Source: a virus (taxonomy: Duplodnaviria; Heunggongvirae; Uroviricota; Caudoviricetes). From it: a DNA stretch of 12,745 nt. Both the position numbers and the translations under genes were made by a program. The stretch lies in IMG/VR virus record IMGVR_UViG_2698536428_000008. One strand, given 5' to 3'. Shown in pieces: positions 1 to 12,745 of this stretch. The notes beneath the pieces were generated by a model that saw nothing but the letters and a program-made list of their open reading frames with translations, ran no database searches and had not been told where the DNA came from. The number at the start of each line of letters is the position of its first letter. Positions within the stretch are counted from its first letter, which is position 1.

Positions 1-180
1 GGTTTCCCCCTGGCGAATACGGGCGGCGAATACCGCAATACAACCGGACGGGCAACGGCTACGCGCTTCGCGTTCCGTCCAGGCGGTTACGTGGATGATT
101 TGAGATTCTGACGCGCCAAAGATGATAAAGCGCCAGATAAATGCGGTTTGAGAATGTACAAGGGTAGGGATAGTAGCCAT
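1..180 (-). CDS. Hypothetical protein, N-terminal 60 codons only; the gene runs off the left edge of the window
   Basis: ATG at 180-178 preceded by a strong Shine-Dalgarno GAGGAGG (complement of 189-195) with 8-nt spacer; the frame stays open to position 1. Translation begins MATIPTLVHSQTAFIWRFIIFGASESQIIHV. The same frame is also stop-free upstream to ~1071, so the true start is uncertain. Family not recognised. Confidence 0.45.
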   Translation of the reverse strand, partial: MATIPTLVHSQTAFIWRFIIFGASESQIIHVTAWTEREARSRCPSGCIAVFAARIRQGET

Positions 181-625
181 GTTGGCAGCCTCCTCAGTGT
201 GGTTAAGATAACCGCCACGCAAAAGGCTAATTTCGCTGGTGGCGGACTGTACAGGGTTAGCCTTACCGGACACTGAAGAAACCGGCGCGGATTGCTCCGC
301 CCCCGTACAGCCCACCATTGATAAGGTGTGACTATGCGGCACAAAAAAACACGCGGGGCGCGTGCTGTGCGCTTCAGTTGTTTTCAGGAGGCTAATCCCG
401 ACACCCGTTTTATGAGGTGCGCGGGAATCATAGCCATTTTTGCTGGTGGCGATCAACTGGTTTTTTACACCCGCTTTATTCAGGTTGTGTGAGTCCCGCC
501 CTTGCGGGTGTGTGGTATGATTTCTCATAGCTACCTCGATACTTTCGCTATCGTTGGTGGTTAGAAGCCCTGCGAGTGGTAACGACACTTGCGGGGCTTT
601 GCATTTATGCACCTTGATAACCTCA

Positions 626-661
626 AGGTGTGGCCCACTATATTCTTTAGGTGTGGCCCAC
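626..661. promoter_or_regulatory. Two copies of AGGTGTGGCCCAC (each containing the palindrome GTGG-c-CCAC), 23 bp apart, upstream of the small RHH gene; candidate operator
   Basis: Exact 13-bp direct repeat at 626-638 and 649-661, read from the sequence; each has an internal inverted repeat. They sit just upstream of a -10-like TATACT at 692-697. Operator function is inferred, not shown. Confidence 0.3.
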
Positions 662-727
662 GTCAAGAGTTTTATTTGTGCTTTTTCTGTGTATACTGTC
701 CCCCACCAATCCAACAGAGGAATAGAA

Positions 728-907
728 ATGGCAACGGGTACAACAAACGCAAAATCACAAGCTCTAAAGGCTCGTGTACCACACGAAATAGTAAACGACA
801 TGGAATTAGTGAAAGAATCAGGCGAAAGCACATCACAATTCATCATTGCGTCAATGCAAGGCGAGATCAAACGCCGCCAGCGCCGCAAGGCCAAAGAGCA
901 GGAATAG
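728..907 (+). CDS. Small ribbon-helix-helix (Arc/CopG-like) DNA-binding protein, 59 aa
   Basis: ATG at 728 with GAGG about 8 nt upstream; it is the in-frame internal start of track ORF 554..907. The sequence KARVPHEIVNDMELVKESGESTSQFIIASMQGEI fits a beta-strand/helix/helix RHH pattern, and the tail is basic (KRRQRRKAKEQE). The fold call is from pattern recognition only. Confidence 0.55.
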   Translation: MATGTTNAKSQALKARVPHEIVNDMELVKESGESTSQFIIASMQGEIKRRQRRKAKEQE

Positions 908-1024
908 CCCACCAGCAAGCCAGCACACTGAGCACATTGCCCACCAGACAGCAAATCGCTATGATGTTCTGGCTTATGTTTAGTGTTTTCCCACTGGCGG
1001 CCCTCTGTGGTCGCCTTTGTTTTG

Positions 1025-1606
1025 TCACTGAATGCGGTTGCCAAAGTAAAACTCAGGCTGATATTCACGTATCAGCCTTTTTTCTTCTTCCTCCAGCTCA
1101 CGCTTTTTGCGCTTACATGCCTGTAGCTCCCTCCCCTTCTGACTGGCACTTATCTGATATTGCTCTTTACGGCGAGAAAAGTCCTGTAATGCGCCCCACG
1201 GGATACCATAAGCCCCCGTTTTTCTGATTCCTGGTATCACATTCCTGAATACCCAGTTACTGAAACGATGGGCGAACGTGCCAGGAGTAACAGCTTTCCG
1301 ACTTCTGGCGATCAGCTTGTAAAAACCGGATTCAGAAATGAGGCTATGATTTGGGTTTCCTCGAATACCGTAGCTTAAAGCGACGGTTTTCTTTTCATCC
1401 GCATCTAGTGCTTTTATAGCATCGCGTGAGTTACTTATTTCCAGAGCAACACAAACATCTTTTGCAACAAACCACGGATCGCCGTTCAGATACACCACAC
1501 GAACGTTCACACTATCAAAGCGCAGAACGACGAGATCACGAATATCGCAGAATTTTTTCACTGGACGAGCGTACCCCTTGCCCGTCACGGCAATATTTTT
1601 ATTCAT
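1025..1606 (-). CDS. Bro-N domain protein (phage antirepressor-like), 193 aa, with a basic, Glu/Lys-rich C-terminal tail
   Basis: Track ORF; ATG at 1606 with AAGG upstream. N-terminal region FCDIRDLVVLRFDSVNVRVVYLNGDPWFVAKDVCVALEISNSRDAIKALDADEKK matches the Bro-N signature (G-PWF-A-DV, DEK). C-terminus KRKKRELEEEEKRLIRE is charged and helix-prone. Confidence 0.8.
   Translation of the reverse strand: MNKNIAVTGKGYARPVKKFCDIRDLVVLRFDSVNVRVVYLNGDPWFVAKDVCVALEISNSRDAIKALDADEKKTVALSYGIRGNPNHSLISESGFYKLIARSRKAVTPGTFAHRFSNWVFRNVIPGIRKTGAYGIPWGALQDFSRRKEQYQISASQKGRELQACKRKKRELEEEEKRLIREYQPEFYFGNRIQ
1055..1091 (+). terminator. Candidate intrinsic terminator for plus-strand transcripts from the RHH gene, embedded in the 3' end of the convergent Bro-N gene
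   Basis: 9-bp stem AGGCTGATA / TATCAGCCT (1055-1063 / 1070-1078) with a 6-nt loop, followed by TTTTTCTTCTTCC. The minus-strand reading also has a U-rich tail, so it may work in both directions. Confidence 0.4.
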
Positions 1607-1623
1607 CGCGTTTTTACCTTATA

Positions 1624-1650
1624 GACAAAAAACCCCTCGTGATGAGGGGC
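1624..1650 (-). terminator. Candidate rho-independent terminator between the alpA-like gene and the Bro-N gene
   Basis: Stem CCCCTC / GAGGGG (1633-1638 / 1644-1649) with a 5-nt loop; on the minus strand the hairpin is followed by TTTTTTGTC. It lies 13 bp after the alpA-like stop and about 26 bp before the Bro-N start. Confidence 0.5.
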
Positions 1651-1662
1651 ATTATTTACTGG

Positions 1663-1920
1663 TTATTGCTGTTTTGTTTTTCCAGGTTTCCATCCAGGAT
1701 GCCACTCACCACGGATCCATGCCTGAACCTCTGAAAGTCGATACCCTGCAGCACGTTCACCGATCTTGATACGTCGCGGGAATTTACCTGCCTGCTCCAT
1801 TTTCCAGCGTGTTGAGTTTGCCAGCGTGGTAAGTGCTATGCACTCTTTTTCACGAATGAACCGATCAATGTCCTTCATTGTGCGCAAATCGTTTTCATCA
1901 ACAAGAGAATAAATTGTCAT
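1663..1920 (-). CDS. alpA: AlpA/Vis-family phage regulatory protein (excisionase-like, helix-turn-helix), 85 aa
   Basis: Track ORF; ATG at 1920 lies 1 nt after the integrase stop, with GAGGTGG upstream (translational coupling). Motif LTTLANSTRWKMEQAGKFPRRIKIGERAAGYRLSEVQAWI matches the AlpA family pattern. Confidence 0.8.
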   Translation of the reverse strand: MTIYSLVDENDLRTMKDIDRFIREKECIALTTLANSTRWKMEQAGKFPRRIKIGERAAGYRLSEVQAWIRGEWHPGWKPGKTKQQ

Positions 1921-1921
1921 A

Positions 1922-3163
1922 TCACACCACCTCTTTATTAAGCTCGATAACGTTGTTGTTAAATCCTGCTATCGTATTAAGGTAATTAACCCACATATTA
2001 AGCACCTCAAGTTTTTTCTTTATATGCCTGCTTTTATTGTAAACACCAGCAACCCCTTTCACTTTATGACCTAAAAGAAGTTCGACAATATAAGGATCCG
2101 CCCCCATATCATTAAGCGCAGTGGAAAATGTGCGCCTGAAATCATGTATGCACCACAAGCCATTAGTATCATGACCAAGACGCCTGCATATTCTGTTTGC
2201 AGCCCCTGTTATTGTCGCCCTTTGCAAAGCACAACCGACAACATAACCGCGATTTTTTGTTTCTGCGTAAAGATTAACGATCCATTGTTTTATACCGTCA
2301 GGAACAGGCCTTACTATGGCCTCCTTGTTTTTGCTGTGCTCTTTTGGGACTGTCCATACCCAGTTTTTTAAATCCCATTCGTCCCAGGTGGATAGCCTCG
2401 CCTCCTGCTGTCGGCAACCAAATACCAGGCAGATAACCATTATTCTTCGGTTATATATTGATGACAGAGTTAGCAAATTATTACCGTAAGCATAAGACCA
2501 TACATCAGCGGTTTCATTGATATTAAGAACGCGCTCCCTTATACCGGATGAGCGCCCGACATAACTTACGTTAATATCTTCAAAGGGATCGCACGCGATG
2601 TATTGCCTGACGCGACAAAAACGCAACGCCTGTTTGATATCAAGAAAAATTGCACCAGACATAACAGGCGCATTTTTTTTGATCCTGTCAAAGACGGTAA
2701 GCCATGTGTGTAATTTGCACTGTTCTATAGCCATATCACCGATATAGGGGAAGATATGCTTTTCAAATCGTTTTATTAAATATTCATGCTCTTTTCTGGC
2801 TGTTGTGGCGTGATTGTCGTACCAGTAAAACAGCGCATCCCTTACGGTCACTGGTTGCATAGTTTTTTCGGCAGCAAGTTTTATTTGCCTGCGGGGGTCC
2901 AGATTTTCAGCCAGCCATTCACGGCACTGATCACGCATGCGCCTGGCCGTTGCAAGAGACATGTCAGGATAGCGACCAAGTGTAAGCCATACCGGAGGGG
3001 ATTCCCTGCCACCAAGACGATAGTAAAAAACAAAGCTGATCCCCCCAACCATGCTTACACGCACAGACAACCCGCGCCCATCCGCTATTGTTTTTTGTTT
3101 GTCCTGCCGTTTTCCGACAAGACTCTTTAACAGTTTGTCACTGAGTTTGTTTTCAATAGCCAT
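1922..3163 (-). CDS. int: Tyrosine-type site-specific recombinase, P4-like integrase (413 aa)
   Basis: Track ORF; ATG at 3163 with GAGGG upstream. N-terminal arm-binding pattern (LSDKLL...DGRGLSVRVS...GGISFVFYYRLGG...LGRYPDMSLATAR...DP) is typical of P4-family integrases; the C-terminal domain has HDFRRT, LLGH and a late Tyr. Confidence 0.93.
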   Translation of the reverse strand: MAIENKLSDKLLKSLVGKRQDKQKTIADGRGLSVRVSMVGGISFVFYYRLGGRESPPVWLTLGRYPDMSLATARRMRDQCREWLAENLDPRRQIKLAAEKTMQPVTVRDALFYWYDNHATTARKEHEYLIKRFEKHIFPYIGDMAIEQCKLHTWLTVFDRIKKNAPVMSGAIFLDIKQALRFCRVRQYIACDPFEDINVSYVGRSSGIRERVLNINETADVWSYAYGNNLLTLSSIYNRRIMVICLVFGCRQQEARLSTWDEWDLKNWVWTVPKEHSKNKEAIVRPVPDGIKQWIVNLYAETKNRGYVVGCALQRATITGAANRICRRLGHDTNGLWCIHDFRRTFSTALNDMGADPYIVELLLGHKVKGVAGVYNKSRHIKKKLEVLNMWVNYLNTIAGFNNNVIELNKEVV

Positions 3164-3181
3164 TAAAAGCCCTCAAGAGAT

Positions 3182-3235
3182 TTGCAATACACACCCATCC
3201 CGATCGCCAATTTGCAATACACATTGCAATACACA
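3182..3235. repeat. Three direct copies of TTGCAATACACA 20-70 bp upstream of the integrase start; candidate integrase arm-type or regulatory sites
   Basis: Exact 12-mer at 3182-3193, 3212-3223 and 3224-3235 (the last two in tandem), read directly. Function is inferred from position next to int and the element junction. Confidence 0.5.
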
Positions 3236-3311
3236 AAACCGCGAAAAACTGGAATGGTGATGAACGGTCATCAAAAGCATGGAAAACGACATTCCAGACG
3301 CAGCAAGGGTT

Positions 3312-6292
<2,981 letters not shown>

Positions 6293-6318
<26 letters not shown>

Positions 6319-6838
6319 TCAGCAACCCCGGTATCAGTTCATCCAGCGCGGCTGCTTTGTTCATGGCTTTGATGATATCCCGTTTCAGGAAATCAACATG
6401 TCGGTTTTCCAGTTCCGGAAAACGCCGCTGCACCGACAGGGGGATCCCGTCGAGAATACTGGCAATTTCACCTGCGATCCGCGACAGCACGAAAGTACAG
6501 AATGCGGTTTCCACCACTTCAGCGGAGTCTCTGGCATTTTTCAGCTCCTGTGCGTCGGCCTGCGCACGCGTAAGTCGATGGCGTTCGTACTCAATAGTCC
6601 CTAGCTGGAGATCTGTCTCGCTGGCCTGCCGCAGTTCTTCAACTTCCCGGCGCAGCTTTTCGTTCTCAATTTCAGCATCCCTTTCGGCATACCATTTTAT
6701 GACGGCGGCAGAGTCATAAAGCACCTCATTACCCTTGCCACCGCCTCGCAGAACGGGCATTCCCTGTTCCTGCCAGTTCTGAATGGTACGGATACTCGCA
6801 CCGAAAATGTCAGCCAGCTGCTTTTTGTTGACTTCCAT
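6293..6838 (-). CDS. nu1: Terminase small subunit gpNu1 (181 aa)
   Basis: Track ORF; MEVNKKQLADIFGASIRTIQNWQEQGMPVLRGGGKGNEVLYDSAAVIKWYAERDAEIENEKLRREVEELRQ matches lambda Nu1 (N-terminal wHTH, ATP-reactive C-terminus). Lies immediately downstream of cos on the minus strand. Confidence 0.95.
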
Positions 6839-7060
6839 TGTTCATTCCACGGACAAAAACAGAGAAAGGAAACGACAGAGGCCAAAAAGCTCGCTTTCAG
6901 CACCTGTCGTTTCCTTTCTTTTCAGAGGGTATTTTAAATAAAAACATTAAGTTATGACGAAGAAGAACGGAAACGCCTTAAACCGGAAAATTTTCATAAA
7001 TAGCGAAAACCCGCGAGGTCGCCGCCCCGTAACCTGTCGGATCGCCGGAAAGGACCCGCA
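6839..7060 (-). other. cos: cos site: cosN 12-nt cohesive end at 7016-7027, cosB between cosN and Nu1, cosQ-side flank to the right
   Basis: Plus strand 7016-7027 is AGGTCGCCGCCC, the reverse complement of the lambda cohesive end GGGCGGCGACCT. The minus-strand sequence from 7027 down reads GGGCGGCGACCTCGCGGGTTTTCGCTATTTATGAAAATTTTCCGG..., matching the lambda left end and leading into Nu1. Confidence 0.85.
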
Positions 7061-7226
7061 AAATGATAATAATTATCATCTACATGTCACAACGTGCATC
7101 TACGCCATCAAACCACGTCAAATAATCAATTATGACGCAGGTATCGTATTAATTGATCTGCATCAACTTAACGTAAAAACAACTTCAGACAATACAAATC
7201 AGCGACACTGAATACGGGGCAACCTC

Positions 7227-7421
7227 ATGTCAACGAAGAACAGAACCCGCAGAACAACAACCCGCAACATCCGCTTTCCTAACCAAATGATTGAACAAAT
7301 TAACATCGCTCTTGAGCAAAAAGGGTCTGGGAATTTCTCAGCCTGGGTCATTGAAGCCTGCCGTCGGAGACTAACGTCAGAAAAGAGAGCATATACATCA
7401 ATCCAAAGTGATGATGGATGA
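7227..7421 (+). CDS. ylcI: Small prophage protein (64 aa), probably YlcI/DUF3950-like
   Basis: Track ORF MSTKNRTRRTTTRNIRFPNQMIEQINIALEQKGSGNFSAWVIEACRRRLTSEKRAYTSIQSDDG. Size and position (between cos/Nu1 and bor) fit the ylcI slot of DLP12-like prophages; the family assignment is from memory. Weak RBS. Confidence 0.55.
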   Translation: MSTKNRTRRTTTRNIRFPNQMIEQINIALEQKGSGNFSAWVIEACRRRLTSEKRAYTSIQSDDG

Positions 7422-7781
7422 ACATCCCGGTTTCTTCCACCATCGCACCGGAAAAGCGACTATGAGGGTAACCCTGCGTCTGTCAGCACAGTAAAACCCG
7501 GTGTGCATCGTTTTTGATTATTCCCGCACACTCACGCAGAAGGAATTCCCCGTCGGGCTACGGTCATGGTTAATGCGGGAATACGGCGACGATACAGCGC
7601 AGCTAAAAGGGTAATGGACAGATAGAGCGGTTTATTTCATTCCACAGGATTCTGAGTGCCCCCCCTCCTCCAATAGGCTGAGCATCCACCTATATAGTTT
7701 TAATTTTCATCAATCCATTTAACTATCGTTTAATTGTTGTCACATAGGATTCTGCCGTTTTTAACAATGCAGGATAATAAG

Positions 7782-8075
7782 ATGAAAAAAATGTTGTTTT
7801 CTGCCGCTCTGGCAATGCTTATTACAGGATGTGCTCAACAGACGTTTACTGTTGGAAACAAACCGACAGCAGTAACACCAAAGGAAACCATCACCCATCA
7901 TTTCTTCGTTTCGGGAATTGGACAGGAGAAAACTGTTGATGCAGCCAAAATTTGTGGCGGCGCAGAAAATGTTGTTAAAACAGAAACCCAGCAAACATTC
8001 GTAAATGGATTTCTCGGTTTTATTACTTTAGGCATTTATACTCCGCTGGAAGCGCGTGTGTATTGCTCACAATAA
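7782..8075 (+). CDS. bor: Bor outer-membrane lipoprotein (serum-resistance moron), 97 aa
   Basis: ATG at 7782 with AGGAT upstream; internal in-frame start of track ORF 7734..8075. Signal peptide with lipobox LITGC; MKKMLFSAALAMLITGCAQQTFTV...EARVYCSQ matches lambda Bor. Opposite strand to the lysis genes, as in lambda. Confidence 0.95.
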   Translation: MKKMLFSAALAMLITGCAQQTFTVGNKPTAVTPKETITHHFFVSGIGQEKTVDAAKICGGAENVVKTETQQTFVNGFLGFITLGIYTPLEARVYCSQ

Positions 8076-8106
8076 TTGCATGAGTTGCCCATCGATATGG
8101 GCAGCT

Positions 8107-8568
8107 CTATCTGCACTGCTCATTAATATACTTCTGGGTTCCTTCCAGTTGTTTTTGCATAGTGATCAGCCTCTCTCTGAGGGTGAAATAATCCCGTTCA
8201 GCGGTGTCTGCCAGTCGGGGGGAGGCTGCATTATCCACGCCGGAGGCGGTGGTGGCTTCACGCACTGACTGACAGACTGCTTTGATGTGCAACCGACGAC
8301 GACCAGCGGCAACATCATCACGCAGAGCATCATTTTCAGCTTTCGCATCAGCTAACTCCTTCGTGTATTTTGCATCGAGCGCAGCAACATCACGCTGACG
8401 CATCTGCATGTCAGTAATTGCCGCGTTCGCCAGCTTCAGTTCTCTGGCATTTTTGTCGCGCTGGGCTTTGTAGGTAATGGCGTTATCACGGTAATGATTA
8501 ACAGCCCATGACAGGCAGACGATGATGCAGATAACCAGAGCGGAGATAATCGCGGTTACTCTGTTCAT
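8107..8568 (-). CDS. Rz: Rz i-spanin (153 aa)
   Basis: ATG at 8568 overlaps the endolysin stop (ATGA); the track ORF extends 4 codons further from a [63 protein letters not shown]... matches lambda Rz (N-terminal TMD, periplasmic coiled coil). Confidence 0.93.
8166..8348 (-). CDS. Rz1: Rz1 o-spanin lipoprotein (60 aa), fully nested in the +1 frame of Rz
   Basis: Track [63 protein letters not shown]: lipobox VVGC and a proline-rich stretch, embedded in Rz as in lambda. Confidence 0.9.
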
Positions 8569-9062
8569 TGCTGACCCCACAAACAGATTTCACGCTCAAT
8601 CTCACGACGAGTCATGAGACCTTTCCATTGCTTACCGCCAGCATATGTCCAGCGACGTAGCTGATCACATGCGCCTTTGATATCGCCCTGGTTTATTTTG
8701 CGAAGAAGCGTCGATGTTCTGAAATTGCCAGCACCCACGTTGTAAACGAATGAGTAAAGAGCGCCGCGCATTGTTTCCGGTATATCGACTTTGATGTACG
8801 GGTTAATTTGTCTGGCGACCGTGGCAAGGTCTTTATTCAGGAGGGCTTTGCATTCTGCTTTGGTATACGTTTTACCGAGCATGATGTCTTTTCCTGTATG
8901 CCCGTGACATACAGTCCATACACCAACAATATCTTTGTATGGTATGTAGCTGACACCTTCCAGACCATCGTTACCACTTGGGCCAGTGATTAACACTGAT
9001 GCTATAGCAATTGCTCCGCCACCAATAGCAGCAGCAACGGCTTTTCGTAATGATGGAGGCAT
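8565..9062 (-). CDS. R: SAR endolysin (phage 21 R / DLP12 RrrD-type lysozyme), 165 aa
   Basis: Track ORF. N-terminal Gly/Ala-rich signal-anchor-release segment ([20 protein letters not shown]) followed by a T4-lysozyme-like E-8-D-5-T catalytic spacing ([17 protein letters not shown]). Start ATG overlaps the holin stop (TAATG). Confidence 0.95.
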
Positions 9063-9277
9063 TATTCACCTCTCGCAGCCTTGCGCTTATCTTCTTTAAT
9101 CTTGAAATAAAGGTTTGTCAGGTACGTCAGCAGGCCAAATACCAGGCTACCCAGCACACCTATTGCTGCCCACTGTGAGGGCGTGACTTTATCGAGCAGC
9201 TGTAAAAACCAGTAACCGGCACTACCTGCTGAGGTGCCATAGGCGACACCCGTTGTTAACTTATCCATGGATTTCAT
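9062..9277 (-). CDS. S: Class II pinholin (phage 21 S / EssD-type) with dual-start motif, 71 aa
   Basis: ATG at 9277 with GAGGTGGGG upstream; the track ORF 9062..9322 starts further upstream from a [74 protein letters not shown] has two TMDs and the M-K-x-M dual-start pattern. Confidence 0.9.
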
Positions 9278-9395
9278 AACCCCACCTCGCAGACAAAGCG
9301 GGTGTAAATTGAGGGAATACAACGTATCGCAAAAAAGCAGAAACGTAACAGACTCGGAGTCAGTGAATAACTCAGGTATTGGGTTATCAGCTAAT

Positions 9396-9440
9396 ATCGA
9401 GACTCAAAAAATGGAAAAACCCGCTCGACGGCGGGTTTAA
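9396..9440 (-). terminator. Strong intrinsic terminator on the minus strand about 120 bp upstream of the holin gene; candidate tR'-like late-leader terminator
   Basis: 8-bp stem AAACCCGC / GCGGGTTT (9417-9424 / 9431-9438) with a 6-nt loop; on the minus strand it is followed by UUUUUCCAUUUUUUG (complement of ~9398-9416). Read directly; the tR' role is inferred by analogy with lambda. Confidence 0.5.
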
Positions 9441-9866
9441 GCTGTGTGACGAAGTAACCACTCTTAACAGCATAACCAATTTTTTACGTACGTAAACCAC
9501 AAAATGATATTTGCGAGAATGCTACCGAGTATTGAAAACACCACTACAAACACATAAGCAAATCTCAACAAATAACCAACAAATAATTTCCAGTGTTATT
9601 TTTAGCCGATTTAAATTGAACCTTCAAATTACAGAGCACTTATAAATAACAGCCGTTAATATAAATTGGCTAATAGATTTATTTTTATTCAGCCAAGATC
9701 CATGAATAGGATTCGATAGAAAAAAGTTCAGATAAAAATAGAGATCTACTTCACAAATCAAACGAGAAACCAAAACTTACATCTTGAAATAATCACATTG
9801 ATTAGATGAATATTTATCGCGCAGTGACATCATTTTTTAATAATAGTTCAAAAAAAAGGGCTCACG

Positions 9867-10949
9867 ATGAAAAAATTAACAGTGGCAATTTCTGCTGTAG
9901 CTGCATCAGTACTGATGGCGATGTCTGCTCAGGCAGCTGAAATTTATAATAAAGACAGTAACAAGCTGGATCTATATGGGAAAGTTAATGCCAAGCACTA
10001 CTTCTCCTCTAATGATGCAGATGATGGTGATACTACTTATGCCCGTCTTGGCTTCAAAGGTGAAACCCAAATCAACGATCAACTGACTGGTTTCGGTCAG
10101 TGGGAATATGAATTCAAAGGCAACCGCGCTGAATCTCAAGGCTCCTCCAAAGACAAAACCCGTCTTGCATTTGCAGGCCTGAAATTCGGGGACTACGGCT
10201 CAATCGATTACGGCCGTAACTACGGTGTAGCATATGACATCGGTGCGTGGACTGACGTTCTGCCAGAATTCGGTGGCGATACCTGGACCCAAACAGATGT
10301 GTTCATGACTGGTCGCACCACTGGTGTTGCAACTTATCGTAACAACGACTTCTTTGGTCTGGTTGATGGTCTGAACTTTGCTGCTCAGTATCAGGGTAAA
10401 AATGACCGCACTGACGTAACTGAAGCTAATGGTGATGGTTTCGGTTTCTCCACTACTTATGAGTATGAAGGATTCGGTGTAGGTGCAACCTATGCTAAAT
10501 CTGACCGCACTAATAATCAGGTTATCTACGGTAACAACAGCCTGAATGCATCTGGTCAAAATGCTGAAGTATGGGCAGCTGGTCTGAAATATGATGCGAA
10601 CAACATCTATCTGGCTACCACCTATTCTGAAACCCAGAACATGACTGTTTTTGGTAATAACCATATTGCCAACAAAGCACAAAACTTCGAAGTAGTTGCA
10701 CAATATCAGTTCGACTTCGGTCTGCGTCCATCCGTTGCTTACCTGCAATCTAAAGGAAAAGACTTGGGTGCGTGGGGTGATCAGGACCTGGTTGAATATA
10801 TTGATGTAGGTGCAACCTATTACTTCAACAAAAATATGTCCACTTTTGTTGATTACAAAATCAACCTGATTGATAAGAGCGATTTCACGAAAGCATCTGG
10901 CGTTGCTACCGATGATATCGTTGCTGTAGGTATGGTTTACCAGTTCTAA
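9867..10949 (+). CDS. nmpC: General-diffusion outer-membrane porin, OmpC/OmpF/NmpC family (360 aa), apparently intact
   Basis: Track ORF; signal peptide [23 protein letters not shown] then [24 protein letters not shown]; C-terminal ...VGMVYQF with the terminal Phe typical of porins. Position between Q and the lysis cassette on the opposite strand matches nmpC of DLP12-like prophages. Confidence 0.93.
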
Positions 10950-11085
10950 TTTGATTACTAAAAGATATGTTGCGGGAGGCTTTGCCTCCCCAACATATAA
11001 GTGGCTCCCTCAAGCCACTTCCTTTAGGAGCACAACCTTGCTTCTAACTATATAAACCTTCTGTTATATATTACCCTTTATTTTT

Positions 11086-11120
11086 GGGGGCGTTGCAACG
11101 CCCCATTTTTAATAATTTTT
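11086..11120 (+). terminator. Candidate intrinsic terminator closing the porin transcript
   Basis: Perfect palindrome GGGGCGTTGCAACGCCCC (11087-11104) followed by ATTTTTAATAATTTTT. Two further hairpins lie between the porin stop and this site (10963-10998 and 10999-11019). Confidence 0.5.
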
Positions 11121-11137
11121 AGTAAACAATTGGCATA

Positions 11138-11521
11138 TTAATTAGAGTTATTAACAACGATATCCATCTCTAACCGGATATCTAATGCCATTAACATCCC
11201 TTCAATTATGCCCTCAGCCTTCTGTAACCTTTTCCCGATATAACCATCAGAGCAGCAATGCTTACCTGCCAGTGACATGAATGTCATACCGACTACATAA
11301 TAATCTACTAATAAATCGTGCAAATCGCTGTTGTTCTTTTTCAGACGGGCCATGCACCCGCAAATAATCATCGCGTCATCGTCACAACATTGCGGGCGAG
11401 ATTTTACTTTTGAAGTAATTAATCCCTTAAAACCGGCGGCAATGGACGACCAGGTCACATCTTCATGATTATTAGCCGCCCACGCTCCCCAACGCTCAAG
11501 AACCATCTGAATATCACGCAT
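11138..11521 (-). CDS. Q: Late-gene antitermination protein Q (phage 21/82, QuuD-type), 127 aa
   Basis: ATG at 11521 with GGAG upstream; the track ORF extends 5 codons further from a [65 protein letters not shown]... matches DLP12 QuuD as I recall it; Cys-rich zinc-binding region present. Confidence 0.9.
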
Positions 11522-11606
11522 CAACTTACTCCACAAAAATCAGACCAGAACGCCAATTACAAGCAAAAATCAACAAAACAGTATTAGTTGATTGTTATCT
11601 CTGACT

Positions 11607-11744
11607 TCATACTCCTGCTCCTGTCAGGGTTTTGGCGTAATTCTTCAGTATTCGGTAATCGGTCAAAACAGAACCGGGGAAACGATATAAGCGCAGATGC
11701 CCCCAGCGGTGGCGAAGAAGTTCTGCCATATAAAACTCAAACAT
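11607..11744 (-). CDS. ylcG: Small ORF (45 aa) between rusA and Q, probably YlcG-like
   Basis: Hand translation: ATG at 11744-11742, immediately after the rusA stop, gives [45 protein letters not shown] then a stop at 11609-11607. Below the track length cutoff. Assignment is by position and size only. Confidence 0.45.
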   Translation of the reverse strand: MFEFYMAELLRHRWGHLRLYRFPGSVLTDYRILKNYAKTLTGAGV

Positions 11745-12106
11745 CATTCATTCCCCATTTCGGTGATGGTCAGTTCCAGCCTCCCACCTTTGGTAACAGG
11801 CATCTTCACAACGCGGTAATCAACGACCTGAGCATCATCCAGCCAGAAACCTGCTTTGGTGAGTGCGTCAAAAGCGGCTTTTTGCAGATTATCCAGGTCA
11901 CGGCGACGGCGATCCGGCATGTGGCACTCAATGCGGATTTTCACAGGCATAGCCAGGCCGATATCCAGCATTGCGTTTTTAATGATTCGGGCGACGTTAT
12001 CGCGGTATGCCTGCCCCTCTGCACTGACGTGCGTGCGCCCGCGATTATGGCGGTAATAGCGATTATTGCTCGGAGGCCAGGGTAATGTGATACTGTAGGT
12101 ATTCAC
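11744..12106 (-). CDS. rusA: RusA Holliday-junction resolvase (120 aa)
   Basis: Track [123 protein letters not shown] matches E. coli RusA. The start appears to be a non-ATG codon overlapping the ybcO stop. Confidence 0.93.
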
Positions 12107-12393
12107 GCCTTAATAACCCCCTCTTTCAGCCAGATAACCTGTGTTCTCGCCATACCTTCCAGCGCGCATTCTTTTGCATATGCAGCATCGACAAAATGTG
12201 TGCGGCGGTCGATTTCGTCGTGGCAGGCAGAACATGCAATGGTGGCAATCAGGTCTGGCGGTTTGATACCGGTACCGCACAATCCAGCCAGCCGGATATG
12301 TGCCAGTACAGACGTTTCAGAATTGCCATTACATACGCCAGGGATTCTTACCTGGCATTCCCGACCACGCGCTGCTTTTCTCAAATCAGCCAT
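12103..12393 (-). CDS. ybcO: YbcO-like nin-region protein (DUF1364, putative nuclease), 96 aa
   Basis: ATG at 12393 with a strong AAGGAGG upstream; the track ORF 12103..12432 starts 13 codons earlier. [64 protein letters not shown]... with Cys/His metal-binding motifs. Confidence 0.85.
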
Positions 12394-12556
12394 GATTCCT
12401 CCTTGCTGCCAGTCGCAACCATTTTTTATCAACCAGGCTAGCGGTATATCCGAGCAGTGTTGGTATTTCGGATGGCTTCAGCTCAGGCTTACGCTTACGA
12501 CGATTTGATACTCTGTAGATGTGTCCGTTCATGACACGAATAAGCGGTGTAGCCAT
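12386..12556 (-). CDS. ninE: NinE-like small protein (56 aa)
   Basis: Hand translation: ATG at 12556 with AGGAGG upstream gives [56 protein letters not shown]; its stop overlaps the ybcO start. Below the track cutoff. Position (upstream of ybcO-rusA-Q) fits ninE. Confidence 0.6.
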   Translation of the reverse strand: MATPLIRVMNGHIYRVSNRRKRKPELKPSEIPTLLGYTASLVDKKWLRLAARRNHG

Positions 12557-12666
12557 TACGCCTCCTGCTTGTCGCGGAGCAGCTGGAACTCGCAGCTCTG
12601 CGGAATAGTCAGGTGGCAGCCAATATTCACCGCCCAGGCTTCAACCTTACACAGGAAGACATACAT
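12556..12666 (-). CDS. Possible small ORF (36 aa) translationally coupled to ninE
   Basis: Hand translation: ATG at 12666 preceded by GGAGAG gives MYVFLCKVEAWAVNIGCHLTIPQSCEFQLLRDKQEA, with a TAA that overlaps the ninE ATG (TAATG). The frame is closed by a stop at 12733-12735 and no other minus frame is open here, so no long gene lies directly upstream of ninE. Confidence 0.25.
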   Translation of the reverse strand: MYVFLCKVEAWAVNIGCHLTIPQSCEFQLLRDKQEA

Positions 12667-12745
12667 CTCTCCGGTATCAAGATCGGAGGTATGGCGTAAC
12701 GACTGGATAGTGGTGATATCTGTAGTGGCACACTAAATTTGGCCA

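Follow-up and report, generated by a model that had tools for sequence, protein, structure and literature searches.

The analysis concerns positions 183-727 of the IMG/VR virus record IMGVR_UViG_2698536428_000008 (Caudoviricetes), and the window means the whole stretch of DNA that was analysed, 12,745 nucleotides (nt) in length. The original prediction called this region intergenic, a label that could not be kept, as its minus strand carries an immunity cassette of the P4/P1 type. Taking the model as a whole, we consider it quite probable that 183-727 controls immunity and decision for the leftward (replication) operon in an integrated satellite of the P4-like or phage-inducible chromosomal island (PICI) type. 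In kind the system is known, combining P4/P1-type RNA immunity with nested translation like that of eta/kil, but this composite variant of it is new. One RNA component of the region is probably undescribed.

Two RNA Genes and Their Paired Targets

The cassette comprises the following features.

456-427, minus strand: PLE-like sigma-70 promoter of the IsrK-like RNA, start near 420 (promoter scan, 9/12)
420-344, minus strand: IsrK-like/P4 seqA-leader RNA (Rfam RF01394)
322-235, minus strand: C4/P4-CI-type antisense RNA (Rfam RF01695)
223-230, minus strand: a2 target UUAGCCUU, perfect complement (8 pairs) of C4 AAGGCUAA (264-257)
186-200, minus strand: b2 target ACACUGAGGAGGCUG, 15 contiguous pairs with the C4 hairpin-2 loop
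1-180, minus strand: 5′ part of the Icd/Kil-like gene, ATG 180-178, running off the left end of the window (NCBIfam phage_ICD_like, 58.4 bits)

Both RNA genes were found at full length. C4 scored 75.4 bits against a gathering score of 45 (model positions 1-87) and isrK 61.8 bits against 50 (model positions 1-77). In C4, the b′ loop occupies 281-270 and the a′ stretch 264-257, and a conserved in-frame AUG at the 5′ end (318-316) has the position of orf45. Inside IsrK lie the targets a1 (395-389, the loop of hairpin 2) and b1 (380-372), and its 3′ end is an intrinsic terminator, hairpin 366-348 followed by the U run 347-341, which was found both by the terminator scan and by the inverted-repeat search. 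The promoter is built of TTGATC (456-451), a spacer of 18 nt and TATGAT (432-427), and ends 7 nt 5′ of position 420. Its hexamers have the same location in P4 and in all relatives; the latter are mostly Enterobacteriaceae viral contigs and are phylogenetically not independent. Judged by this consensus match, IsrK appears to be a transcript with its own promoter and intrinsic terminator. Both Rfam families are found in the P4 immunity region too (C4 8507-8420, isrK 8692-8615), and their order is unchanged. The two RNA genes are known biology, because the IsrK-like RNA has already been equated with the seqA leader, and C4 with the CI RNA, of P4-like prophages (PMC3632133, PMC10111431 and PMC4825925).

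The hairpin-2 loop of C4 (UUUCUUCAGUGU, 281-270) and ACACUGAGGAGGCUG (200-186) form 15 contiguous pairs including G.U pairs, and this b2 target contains the Shine-Dalgarno (SD) sequence GAGGAGG (195-189) of the icd-like gene. On the upstream side, C4 a′ AAGGCUAA can form 7 pairs with UUAGCCU in the IsrK hairpin-2 loop (a1), and the b1 site is weaker, with 7 pairs. By these predicted pairings, a′ and b′ are complementary to targets upstream (a1, b1) as well as downstream (a2, b2), and b2 lies at the ribosome-binding site of the next gene. Co-variation of loops and targets is a direct test of such an antisense design. Across 28 modules, 19 distinct a′/b′ combinations were found, and in each of them the a1/a2 and b1/b2 targets are altered in step. 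Taken together, the scores above the Rfam gathering thresholds and the co-varying targets support the presence of RNA-based immunity of the P4 type with repeated targets, which the original prediction had held conceivable. The true antisense repeats (270-281/186-200, and 257-264/223-230 together with 389-395) were missing from it.

The minimum-free-energy fold of the whole leader has a z score of −5.5, and in it the middle of IsrK (AGCCUCCU, 386-395) pairs with the SD sequence of the icd-like gene (AGGAGGCU, 186-194). This sequestration in cis is predicted for the present specificity type only and resembles structure A, the inactive form, of Gifsy-1; the complementarity was not seen in the sister type L001.

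Two side observations concern the cassette. A 10-nt minus-strand repeat, CGCCACCAGC, occurs at 235-244 (3′ end of C4) and at 442-451 (between the two hexamers of the IsrK promoter); sister types do not share it, and chance is the probable explanation. In lambdoid and some P4-like loci, two to three isrK-C4 modules stand in tandem. A second module is found near 1550-1760 in L043, L047, L050, L058 and L060, and further examples are L044 (1282-1464), L016 (second C4 at 1488-1576) and L173 (three sites). Most of these modules differ in a′/b′ specificity, and the conserved SD-ATG (MAT...) start comes after each, which gives the impression of several immunity types arranged in a stack.

The Long Open Frame on the Minus Strand

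The frame of the icd-like gene extends far upstream of its ATG and crosses a gene on the other strand.

1071-1, minus strand: eta-like long open frame, stop-free over 357 codons
728-907, plus strand: YlcI/YnfO-family regulator gene (NCBIfam YlcI_YnfO_N, 63.7 bits)
1025-1606, minus strand: Bro-N protein gene (Pfam search)
1663-1920, minus strand: AlpA homologue (Pfam Phage_AlpA)

The openness of the minus frame of ATG 180 from 1071 to 1 was correctly read in the original prediction. The first bounding stop is TGA 1074-1072, and 181-1071 was left open in 0 of 2000 dinucleotide shuffles. The frame is in phase with ATG 528, AUG 318 and ATG 180. It runs antisense through the regulator gene and then over an upstream promoter, ATG 528, the internal promoter, IsrK, C4 and the icd-like gene. 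From the coordinates, the third codon positions of both strands coincide in this phase.

The relatives keep the frame in the same phase. In 24 of 27 distinct modules, the frame in the phase of the ATG is stop-free from the IsrK promoter up to this codon, with a total length divisible by three. Single indels that are not multiples of three do occur in the alignments, a check named by the original prediction, and these unequal indels compensate so that the sum stays a multiple of three (L044b, 76+16+91+57; P4, 78+107+88+54). The loci of these modules had partly been found with the translated frame and are biased to openness, and for this reason the test was repeated on loci collected by DNA patterns. 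With the 18-base SD-ATG pattern only, 91 distinct upstream sequences were obtained, and C4 lies between −142 and −55 in every one. Over 276 nt, 76 of the 91 are free of stops in the phase of the ATG, and none is free of stops in the +2 frame.

A longer stretch was followed in the loci found with the leader pattern. Over the 543 nt upstream of the equivalent of ATG 528, the in-phase minus frame is stop-free in 55 of 78 unique sequences and each of the other five frames in none (0/78). The spacing from the YlcI/YnfO start to the ATG is 133, 136, 190, 193, 196, 199 or 205 nt in 63 sequences, every value being 1 mod 3, and all these 63 are open through the regulator gene, while nine sequences with a spacing of 194 or 197 nt are closed. 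All 12 regulator protein clusters (<70% identity) are free of antisense stops; the expected probabilities multiply to 1.5e-6, in a statistic that treats sequence types as independent.

The P4 eta frame was also checked and is stop-free, and both the eta and the kil frames of P4 carry the Icd-like domain. Like eta/kil, the window has a C-terminal Kil/Icd-like domain and an in-frame long open reading frame (ORF) that spans the internal promoter, the seqA leader and cI. The predicted product does not look like a folded protein and changes completely between types; openness, not sequence, seems to be under selection. These comparisons support the long leftward frame as a conserved feature, not an accident, that corresponds to P4 eta/kil. 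Where the original prediction had left a longer leftward gene and a shadow frame side by side, the conserved openness in relatives and the P4 precedent speak for the longer gene.

In relatives that have no Bro-N gene, the frame starts at an ATG with an SD sequence at the end of the alpA-like gene. In the window, Bro-N intervenes after alpA, and the available starts are GTG 1068-1066, with AAGG 7 nt upstream, or ATG 528.

A Second icd Remnant and the "Ash" Domain

475-528, minus strand: 5′ remnant of a second icd-like gene, 18 codons, MRNHTTHPQGRDSHNLNK, N-terminus identical to the Icd-like proteins of L003 and L004

The remnant has ATG 528-526 and the SD sequence GAGGU (537-533), and it is fused in frame to the cassette. 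L003 and L004 have neither isrK nor C4, and their Icd-like gene consists of MRNHTTHPQGRDSHNLNK followed directly by the Icd core. The order in the window is the 18 codons (528-475), the promoter-IsrK-C4 cassette and an icd-like gene with a complete start. In other relatives the cassette is joined after 25, 30 or 46 codons of the upstream icd copy, always in frame. Among 100 unique loci with this leader, 82 have a direct Icd-like gene of 66-68 amino acids, 16 are composite as here and 2 have C4 only. The Icd-like protein of the window (58.4 bits) matches NCBIfam phage_ICD_like, as do P4 Kil, with 76 bits, and P4 eta. As a side observation, the junction 462-485 (minus strand, ACCUGAAUAAAGCGGGUG) resembles hairpin 1 of the lambdoid-type IsrK (ACCUUAUAAAGCGGGUG) and may be what is left after a further IsrK copy recombined here or was deleted.

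The ORF from ATG 528 matches Pfam Phage_ASH (PF10554) with its residues 33-126 (44.1 bits, cut-off 26). The match corresponds to nt 432-151 of the minus strand, exactly the translation of IsrK, C4 and the start of icd. Ash membership therefore says little about protein function. The overlap also explains the RefSeq "ash family protein" pseudogenes and the "Rha proteins with an Ash domain" of Stx phages (PMC8951638). A translated search for the "Ash" frame in species-representative genomes gave 2 loci only, and the searches of viral contigs yielded more.

A Candidate Antisense Small RNA Opposite ATG 528

513-521, plus strand: extended −10 TGgTATGAT (TGGTATGAT), read directly in the sequence
~528-606, plus strand: candidate cis-antisense small RNA, from a strand-specific fold, start expected near 528

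The extended −10 is not listed by the consensus promoter scan because it is without a −35. In relatives it appears as TATAAT, TATTAT or TGATATGAT; T1, A2 and T6 are kept and the codons on the opposite strand are changed. We regard it as probably a real plus-strand promoter. Directly downstream, the plus strand of 527-612 folds into two stem-loops with −41.6 kcal/mol (z −6.2, 0/200 shuffles), as against −24.3 kcal/mol (z −2.1) for the minus strand. The parts are stem-loop 1 (SL1, 528-563) and the GC-rich, terminator-like stem-loop 2 (SL2, 564-600), followed by UUUGCAUUUAU. Of 96 unique sequences, 94 have the more stable fold on the plus strand (means −36.7 and −24.1); the set includes about ten unrelated high-GC chance 17-mer matches, two of which appear to be the exceptions.

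The structure is retained under sequence change. A sequence-only alignment of SL2 had left the upper stem unaligned and was replaced by per-sequence folds and RNAalifold. By the per-sequence folds, 71 unique relatives have 33 different SL2 hairpins, all of which form stems. Many G.U pairs, e.g., at 530, 532, 564, 571 and 573, would be A.C mismatches on the other strand. Pair types are exchanged as well; for instance, position 566 is in an A-U pair 38 times, C-G 26 times and G-C 4 times. RNAalifold with 22 diverse sequences gave 23 pairs, 8 of them with compensatory double changes.

The small RNA is complementary to the SD sequence, the first base or two of ATG 528-526 and ~75 nt of the leftward 5′ untranslated region (UTR). 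In 82 of the 100 unique relatives, the unit stands directly before the Icd-like gene of 66-68 amino acids and overlaps its SD sequence and ATG. The anatomy of a type I toxin-antitoxin pair fits the same 82. As a putative toxin, the Icd-like protein does not conform to the hydrophobic type usual in such pairs, and toxicity is known only for its homologues P1 Icd and P4 Kil. It is probable that the predicted plus-strand RNA of ~528-605 is a sar-like antisense small RNA (sRNA), and the extended −10 more likely drives such a short terminated antisense RNA than the regulator mRNA alone.

Of 5426 complete E. coli genomes, 1408 have a sequence like window 495-612, and in 847 of these the similarity spans no less than 80% of its length. 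Near-full-length matches to the small RNA include ABU 83972, O103:H2 12009 and some O157:H7 strains; Nissle 1917 is without the window-type SL2, since the match covers the first 64% only. No non-coding RNA is annotated at this position among the 60 E. coli records listed. An Rfam search of 440-760 up to E = 10 gave no family, the only two matches being at chance level. No described sRNA antisense to icd-like genes was found in the literature, where a description may nonetheless exist.

Shortly before the extended −10, 495-508 is a perfect small palindrome, CCCGCCCTTGCGGG, which might bind a protein or form a hairpin in the icd leader RNA. Its conservation is partly ascertainment, because it is invariant in the leader and was used as a search pattern.

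Divergent Promoters, Operator-Like Repeats and the Regulator

666-637, minus strand: upstream leftward sigma-70 promoter, start near 630 (promoter scan, 10/12)
626-638 and 649-661: direct operator-like repeats AGGTGTGGCCCAC, overlapping the leftward promoter (repeat search)
692-727, plus strand: putative −10 TATACT (692-697) and ribosome-binding site of the regulator gene, at a conserved position

The leftward promoter consists of TTGACG (666-661), an 18-nt spacer and TATAGT (642-637) and was graded strong. In relatives the −35 is kept, and the repeats are swapped for others (e.g., GGTGTTGAACAC, CTGGATTCCAG and TGTGCGCACA) along with the N-terminal part of the regulator. At the position of 692-697, relatives have TATACT, TATATT or CATACT, and a third partial operator, GTCCCCCAC (~698-706), lies just downstream of the regulator −10. 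As the operator repeats change with the regulator type, we infer that the YlcI/YnfO regulator represses both divergent promoters. In the original prediction, the extended −10 at 513-521 was thought to fire toward this gene, described there as a ribbon-helix-helix gene. The motif is present and probably a promoter; the regulator gene has its own conserved −10 at 692-697. Nothing relevant on the function of YlcI/YnfO was found in the literature.

Downstream of the regulator gene, the plus strand has two terminator-like hairpins, 996-1015 and 1055-1078. The latter falls within the 3′-terminal part of the Bro-N coding sequence and can form on either strand. Through the former, the long minus frame stays free of stops, reading KTKATTEGRQW.

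Plus-Strand Frames and Repeats

Other features named in the original prediction exist in the sequence but are not supported in the meaning considered for them. The plus-strand ORF, listed as 328-492 from GTG with an ATG at 334, is there with its AAGGTG. As a gene it was rejected, being intact in the closest relatives only and belonging to no family. The open plus phase (ORF 589-1227) was likewise rejected as a meaningful feature, as it is specific to the window and the plus frames are open in 0 of 78 relatives. The 13-bp direct repeats at 401-413 and 467-479 are present with 92% identity. One such pair arises by chance in ~5% of shuffles, so that the pair alone is borderline, and the copies are not immunity targets: 401-413 forms the loop of IsrK hairpin 1 together with its 3′ arm, and 467-479, which differs in sister types, lies where the icd remnant meets the cassette, a recombination junction. 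CGGGTGT is found at 505-511, where it is part of the conserved leader CCCGCCCTTGCGGGTGT, and it too was dismissed as an immunity target.

Alternative Explanations

It may be argued that only the two RNA genes matter and that the long minus frame is an untranslated shadow, held open passively by RNA structure and by the codon usage of the regulator. Its predicted product has low complexity, with much Cys, Ser and Arg, and is entirely different from one operator type to another. Regulator genes seldom have T at third positions (0.08-0.31), which lowers the chance of antisense stops, and both the loss of openness in 15 of 91 relatives and the lack of a good start codon after the Bro-N gene in the window would suit a shadow. 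However, the frame is also open across promoter, operator and UTR segments, which occur in 24 differing sequence types and on which neither an RNA nor a protein imposes a constraint. None of the other five frames is ever open, the seven spacings keep the phase while the frameshifted cases are closed, the junctions are in frame and the indels compensate. Moreover, the homologous P4 eta is reported (PMC10111431, citing Forti 1999) to be translated and to prevent termination. On balance, we consider a shadow frame unlikely. A second alternative, the view of the original prediction, takes the structured RNA of 528-605 as the 5′ leader or attenuator of a YlcI/YnfO mRNA started at the extended −10. 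The regulator gene is ~120 nt downstream on the same strand, the imperfect U tract after SL2 makes read-through plausible, and the promoter scan listed no consensus promoter for the regulator. Yet all types have the conserved TATACT, TATATT or CATACT and an operator copy ~30 nt upstream of the regulator ribosome-binding site, a read-through transcript would meet the 666-637 promoter head-on, and 82 of 100 unique relatives show the layout of an antisense regulator, the unit overlapping the SD sequence and ATG of the Icd-like gene. A leader function is rather unlikely by this comparison, and an antisense RNA remains our preferred assignment.

Two alternatives concern proteins within the cassette. 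If "Ash" (PF10554) were a genuine folded domain encoded at 432-151 with its own function, its Pfam score above the cut-off, the "ash family protein" label given by PGAP in relatives and the Rha proteins described "with an Ash domain" (PMC8951638) would be accounted for, and the overlapping orf45 of Gifsy-1 is translated according to PMC4825925. This is distinctly improbable, as the match covers precisely IsrK, C4 and the icd start, and its variation obeys RNA pairing, the loops and targets changing together with amino acids freely altered. PMC4825925 describes the nucleotide sequence as conserved and the amino-acid sequence as not, and PGAP flags the ORFs as incomplete pseudogenes. A 52-residue protein from the plus ORF 334-492 can hardly be expected at all. 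Its ATG with AAGGTG 5 nt upstream and the intact ORF in the closest relatives are set against the absence of the ATG in the sister P4-like types L001, L025, L029 and L034 and in most lambdoid modules. It has no Pfam match, it lies precisely opposite IsrK and the IsrK promoter, and what looks like a ribosome-binding site is the complement of the conserved CACCUU spacer.

Several points weigh against the reading preferred here, in which the long frame is translated and an antisense RNA acts at ATG 528. Every functional step of the model is drawn by analogy. The −35 of the small-RNA promoter is poor, and SL2 is followed by a broken U tract in which 9 nt contain 4.7 U on average. For the long frame in the window, the only upstream start is GTG 1068 with its weak AAGG, none being convincingly coupled to Bro-N; translation from far upstream is uncertain there because Bro-N sits between alpA and the frame. 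Openness is lost in 15 of 91 relatives, e.g., in Stx phages such as L002, so that the frame is not indispensable. The regulator has no solved relative by PDB sequence search and no Pfam match, and its ribbon-helix-helix fold is assumed only.

Element Context

1922-3163, minus strand: tyrosine integrase ORF (ORF list)

Together with the genes given above, this ORF makes window 1-3163 the integrase-proximal end of an integrated P4-like/PICI-type satellite. DNA resembling window 1-1100 occurs in 1594 of 5426 complete E. coli genomes, where the matching DNA is annotated as "Icd-like | ash family (pseudogene) | YlcI/YnfO" and the Icd-like product in relatives is named "host cell division inhibitor Icd-like protein". 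Replication genes lie 3′ of the icd-like gene in relatives. An Rfam scan of window 3164-12745 gave no tRNA or other RNA family.

Comparison with Known Systems

According to the summary of Forti 1999 in PMC10111431, P4 eta has 197 codons, starts after an alpA homologue, spans PLE, seqA and cI in frame with kil, and its translation prevents termination. The window resembles P4 in the two RNA families and their order, in the place of the promoter hexamers, in the distance of 54 nt from the C4 3′ end to the ATG, in the phage_ICD_like assignment of Kil and of the window protein, and in the long ORF over the internal promoter and both RNAs that is in frame with kil/icd. It differs from P4 in the IsrK-C4 spacer (21 nt as compared to 107 nt), in the a′/b′ specificity and in the length of the frame (at least 357 codons as compared to 197). 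The frame of the window holds an antisense regulator gene, operators and the extra promoter 666-637, all of which P4 is without; its 5′ part has the second icd remnant and the candidate antisense RNA, and a Bro-N gene separates it from alpA.

In the immI regions of P1 and P7 (c4, icd, ant), a′ and b′ of C4 pair with a1/b1 upstream and a2/b2 downstream, and b2 covers the ribosome-binding site of icd. Co-varying C4 specificity is the basis of P1/P7 heteroimmunity (c4 summary in PMC12197685). The window shares the pairing layout, the position of b2 over the icd ribosome-binding site and the co-varying types. The differences are that no ant gene was seen downstream, replication genes following the icd-like gene in relatives, and that the window has a terminated leader of the IsrK type.

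In the case of Gifsy-1 (isrK-orf45-anrP), PMC4825925 describes a 77-nt IsrK formed by termination and read-through into a C4-like region. In both systems the C4-like region is also an ORF from a conserved AUG (318-316 in the window), and the predicted pairing of the IsrK middle with the downstream ribosome-binding site is like the published structure A. The orf45 equivalent of the window (46 codons) differs in having no stop, being fused in frame to the icd-like gene, and the downstream gene is Icd/Kil-like in the window and AnrP in Gifsy-1.

The immI region of P22 contains the sar antisense RNA and the ribbon-helix-helix repressors Arc and Mnt. The likeness is one of working principle, a short terminated RNA directed against the ribosome-binding site of the first gene (sar summary in PMC12197685) and a small repressor at overlapping divergent promoters that controls the operon. 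The small RNA of the window matches no Rfam family, sar included, and is not a member of that family; the gene under control also differs, and the window RNA is a predicted one.

Proposed Mechanism and Significance

The constitutive-looking promoter 456-427 would start the IsrK-like RNA, which would end at its intrinsic terminator. Read-through would carry the C4/CI-like RNA (322-235), and C4 would be processed from the read-through transcript, by RNase P among others, and would confer immunity in trans, as in P4 and P1. By the same analogy, C4 may pair with a1/b1 and a2/b2 on nascent leaders, causing premature termination and blocking icd translation, with the outcome that the downstream replication genes would be silent, i.e., immunity. 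Transcription from upstream, either from the 666-637 promoter or from the alpA operon, together with ribosomes crossing the cassette on the eta-like frame, would make expression insensitive to immunity. The 666-637 promoter is probably repressed by the divergent YlcI/YnfO regulator through the repeated operators. The small RNA of ~528-605 may pair with the SD sequence and ATG 528 and gate ribosome entry in the manner of P22 sar.

In its most specific form, the proposal is tentative and, in our judgement, somewhat less than evenly probable. Ribosome transit through a frame of more than 350 codons, selected for openness and running antisense through the gene of its own repressor with coinciding wobble positions, would be the anti-immunity signal. 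Entry, and in most relatives Icd-like translation too, would be gated by an undescribed family of sar-like cis-antisense sRNAs, and ~26% of complete E. coli genomes have similar sequence.

For annotation, the findings resolve a problem, as the region goes under the names of intergenic DNA, an "ash family" pseudogene or an "Ash domain" of Rha proteins, and this domain is what results when two RNA genes are translated. Translation across an RNA immunity cassette, which is the eta/kil logic of P4, would be widespread and detectable as avoidance of stop codons, even across an antisense gene. An unannotated candidate small RNA stands before an Icd-like division inhibitor in many clinical and probiotic E. 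coli strains. Finally, the 19 a′/b′ specificity types could predict cross-immunity between satellites and lambdoid prophages.

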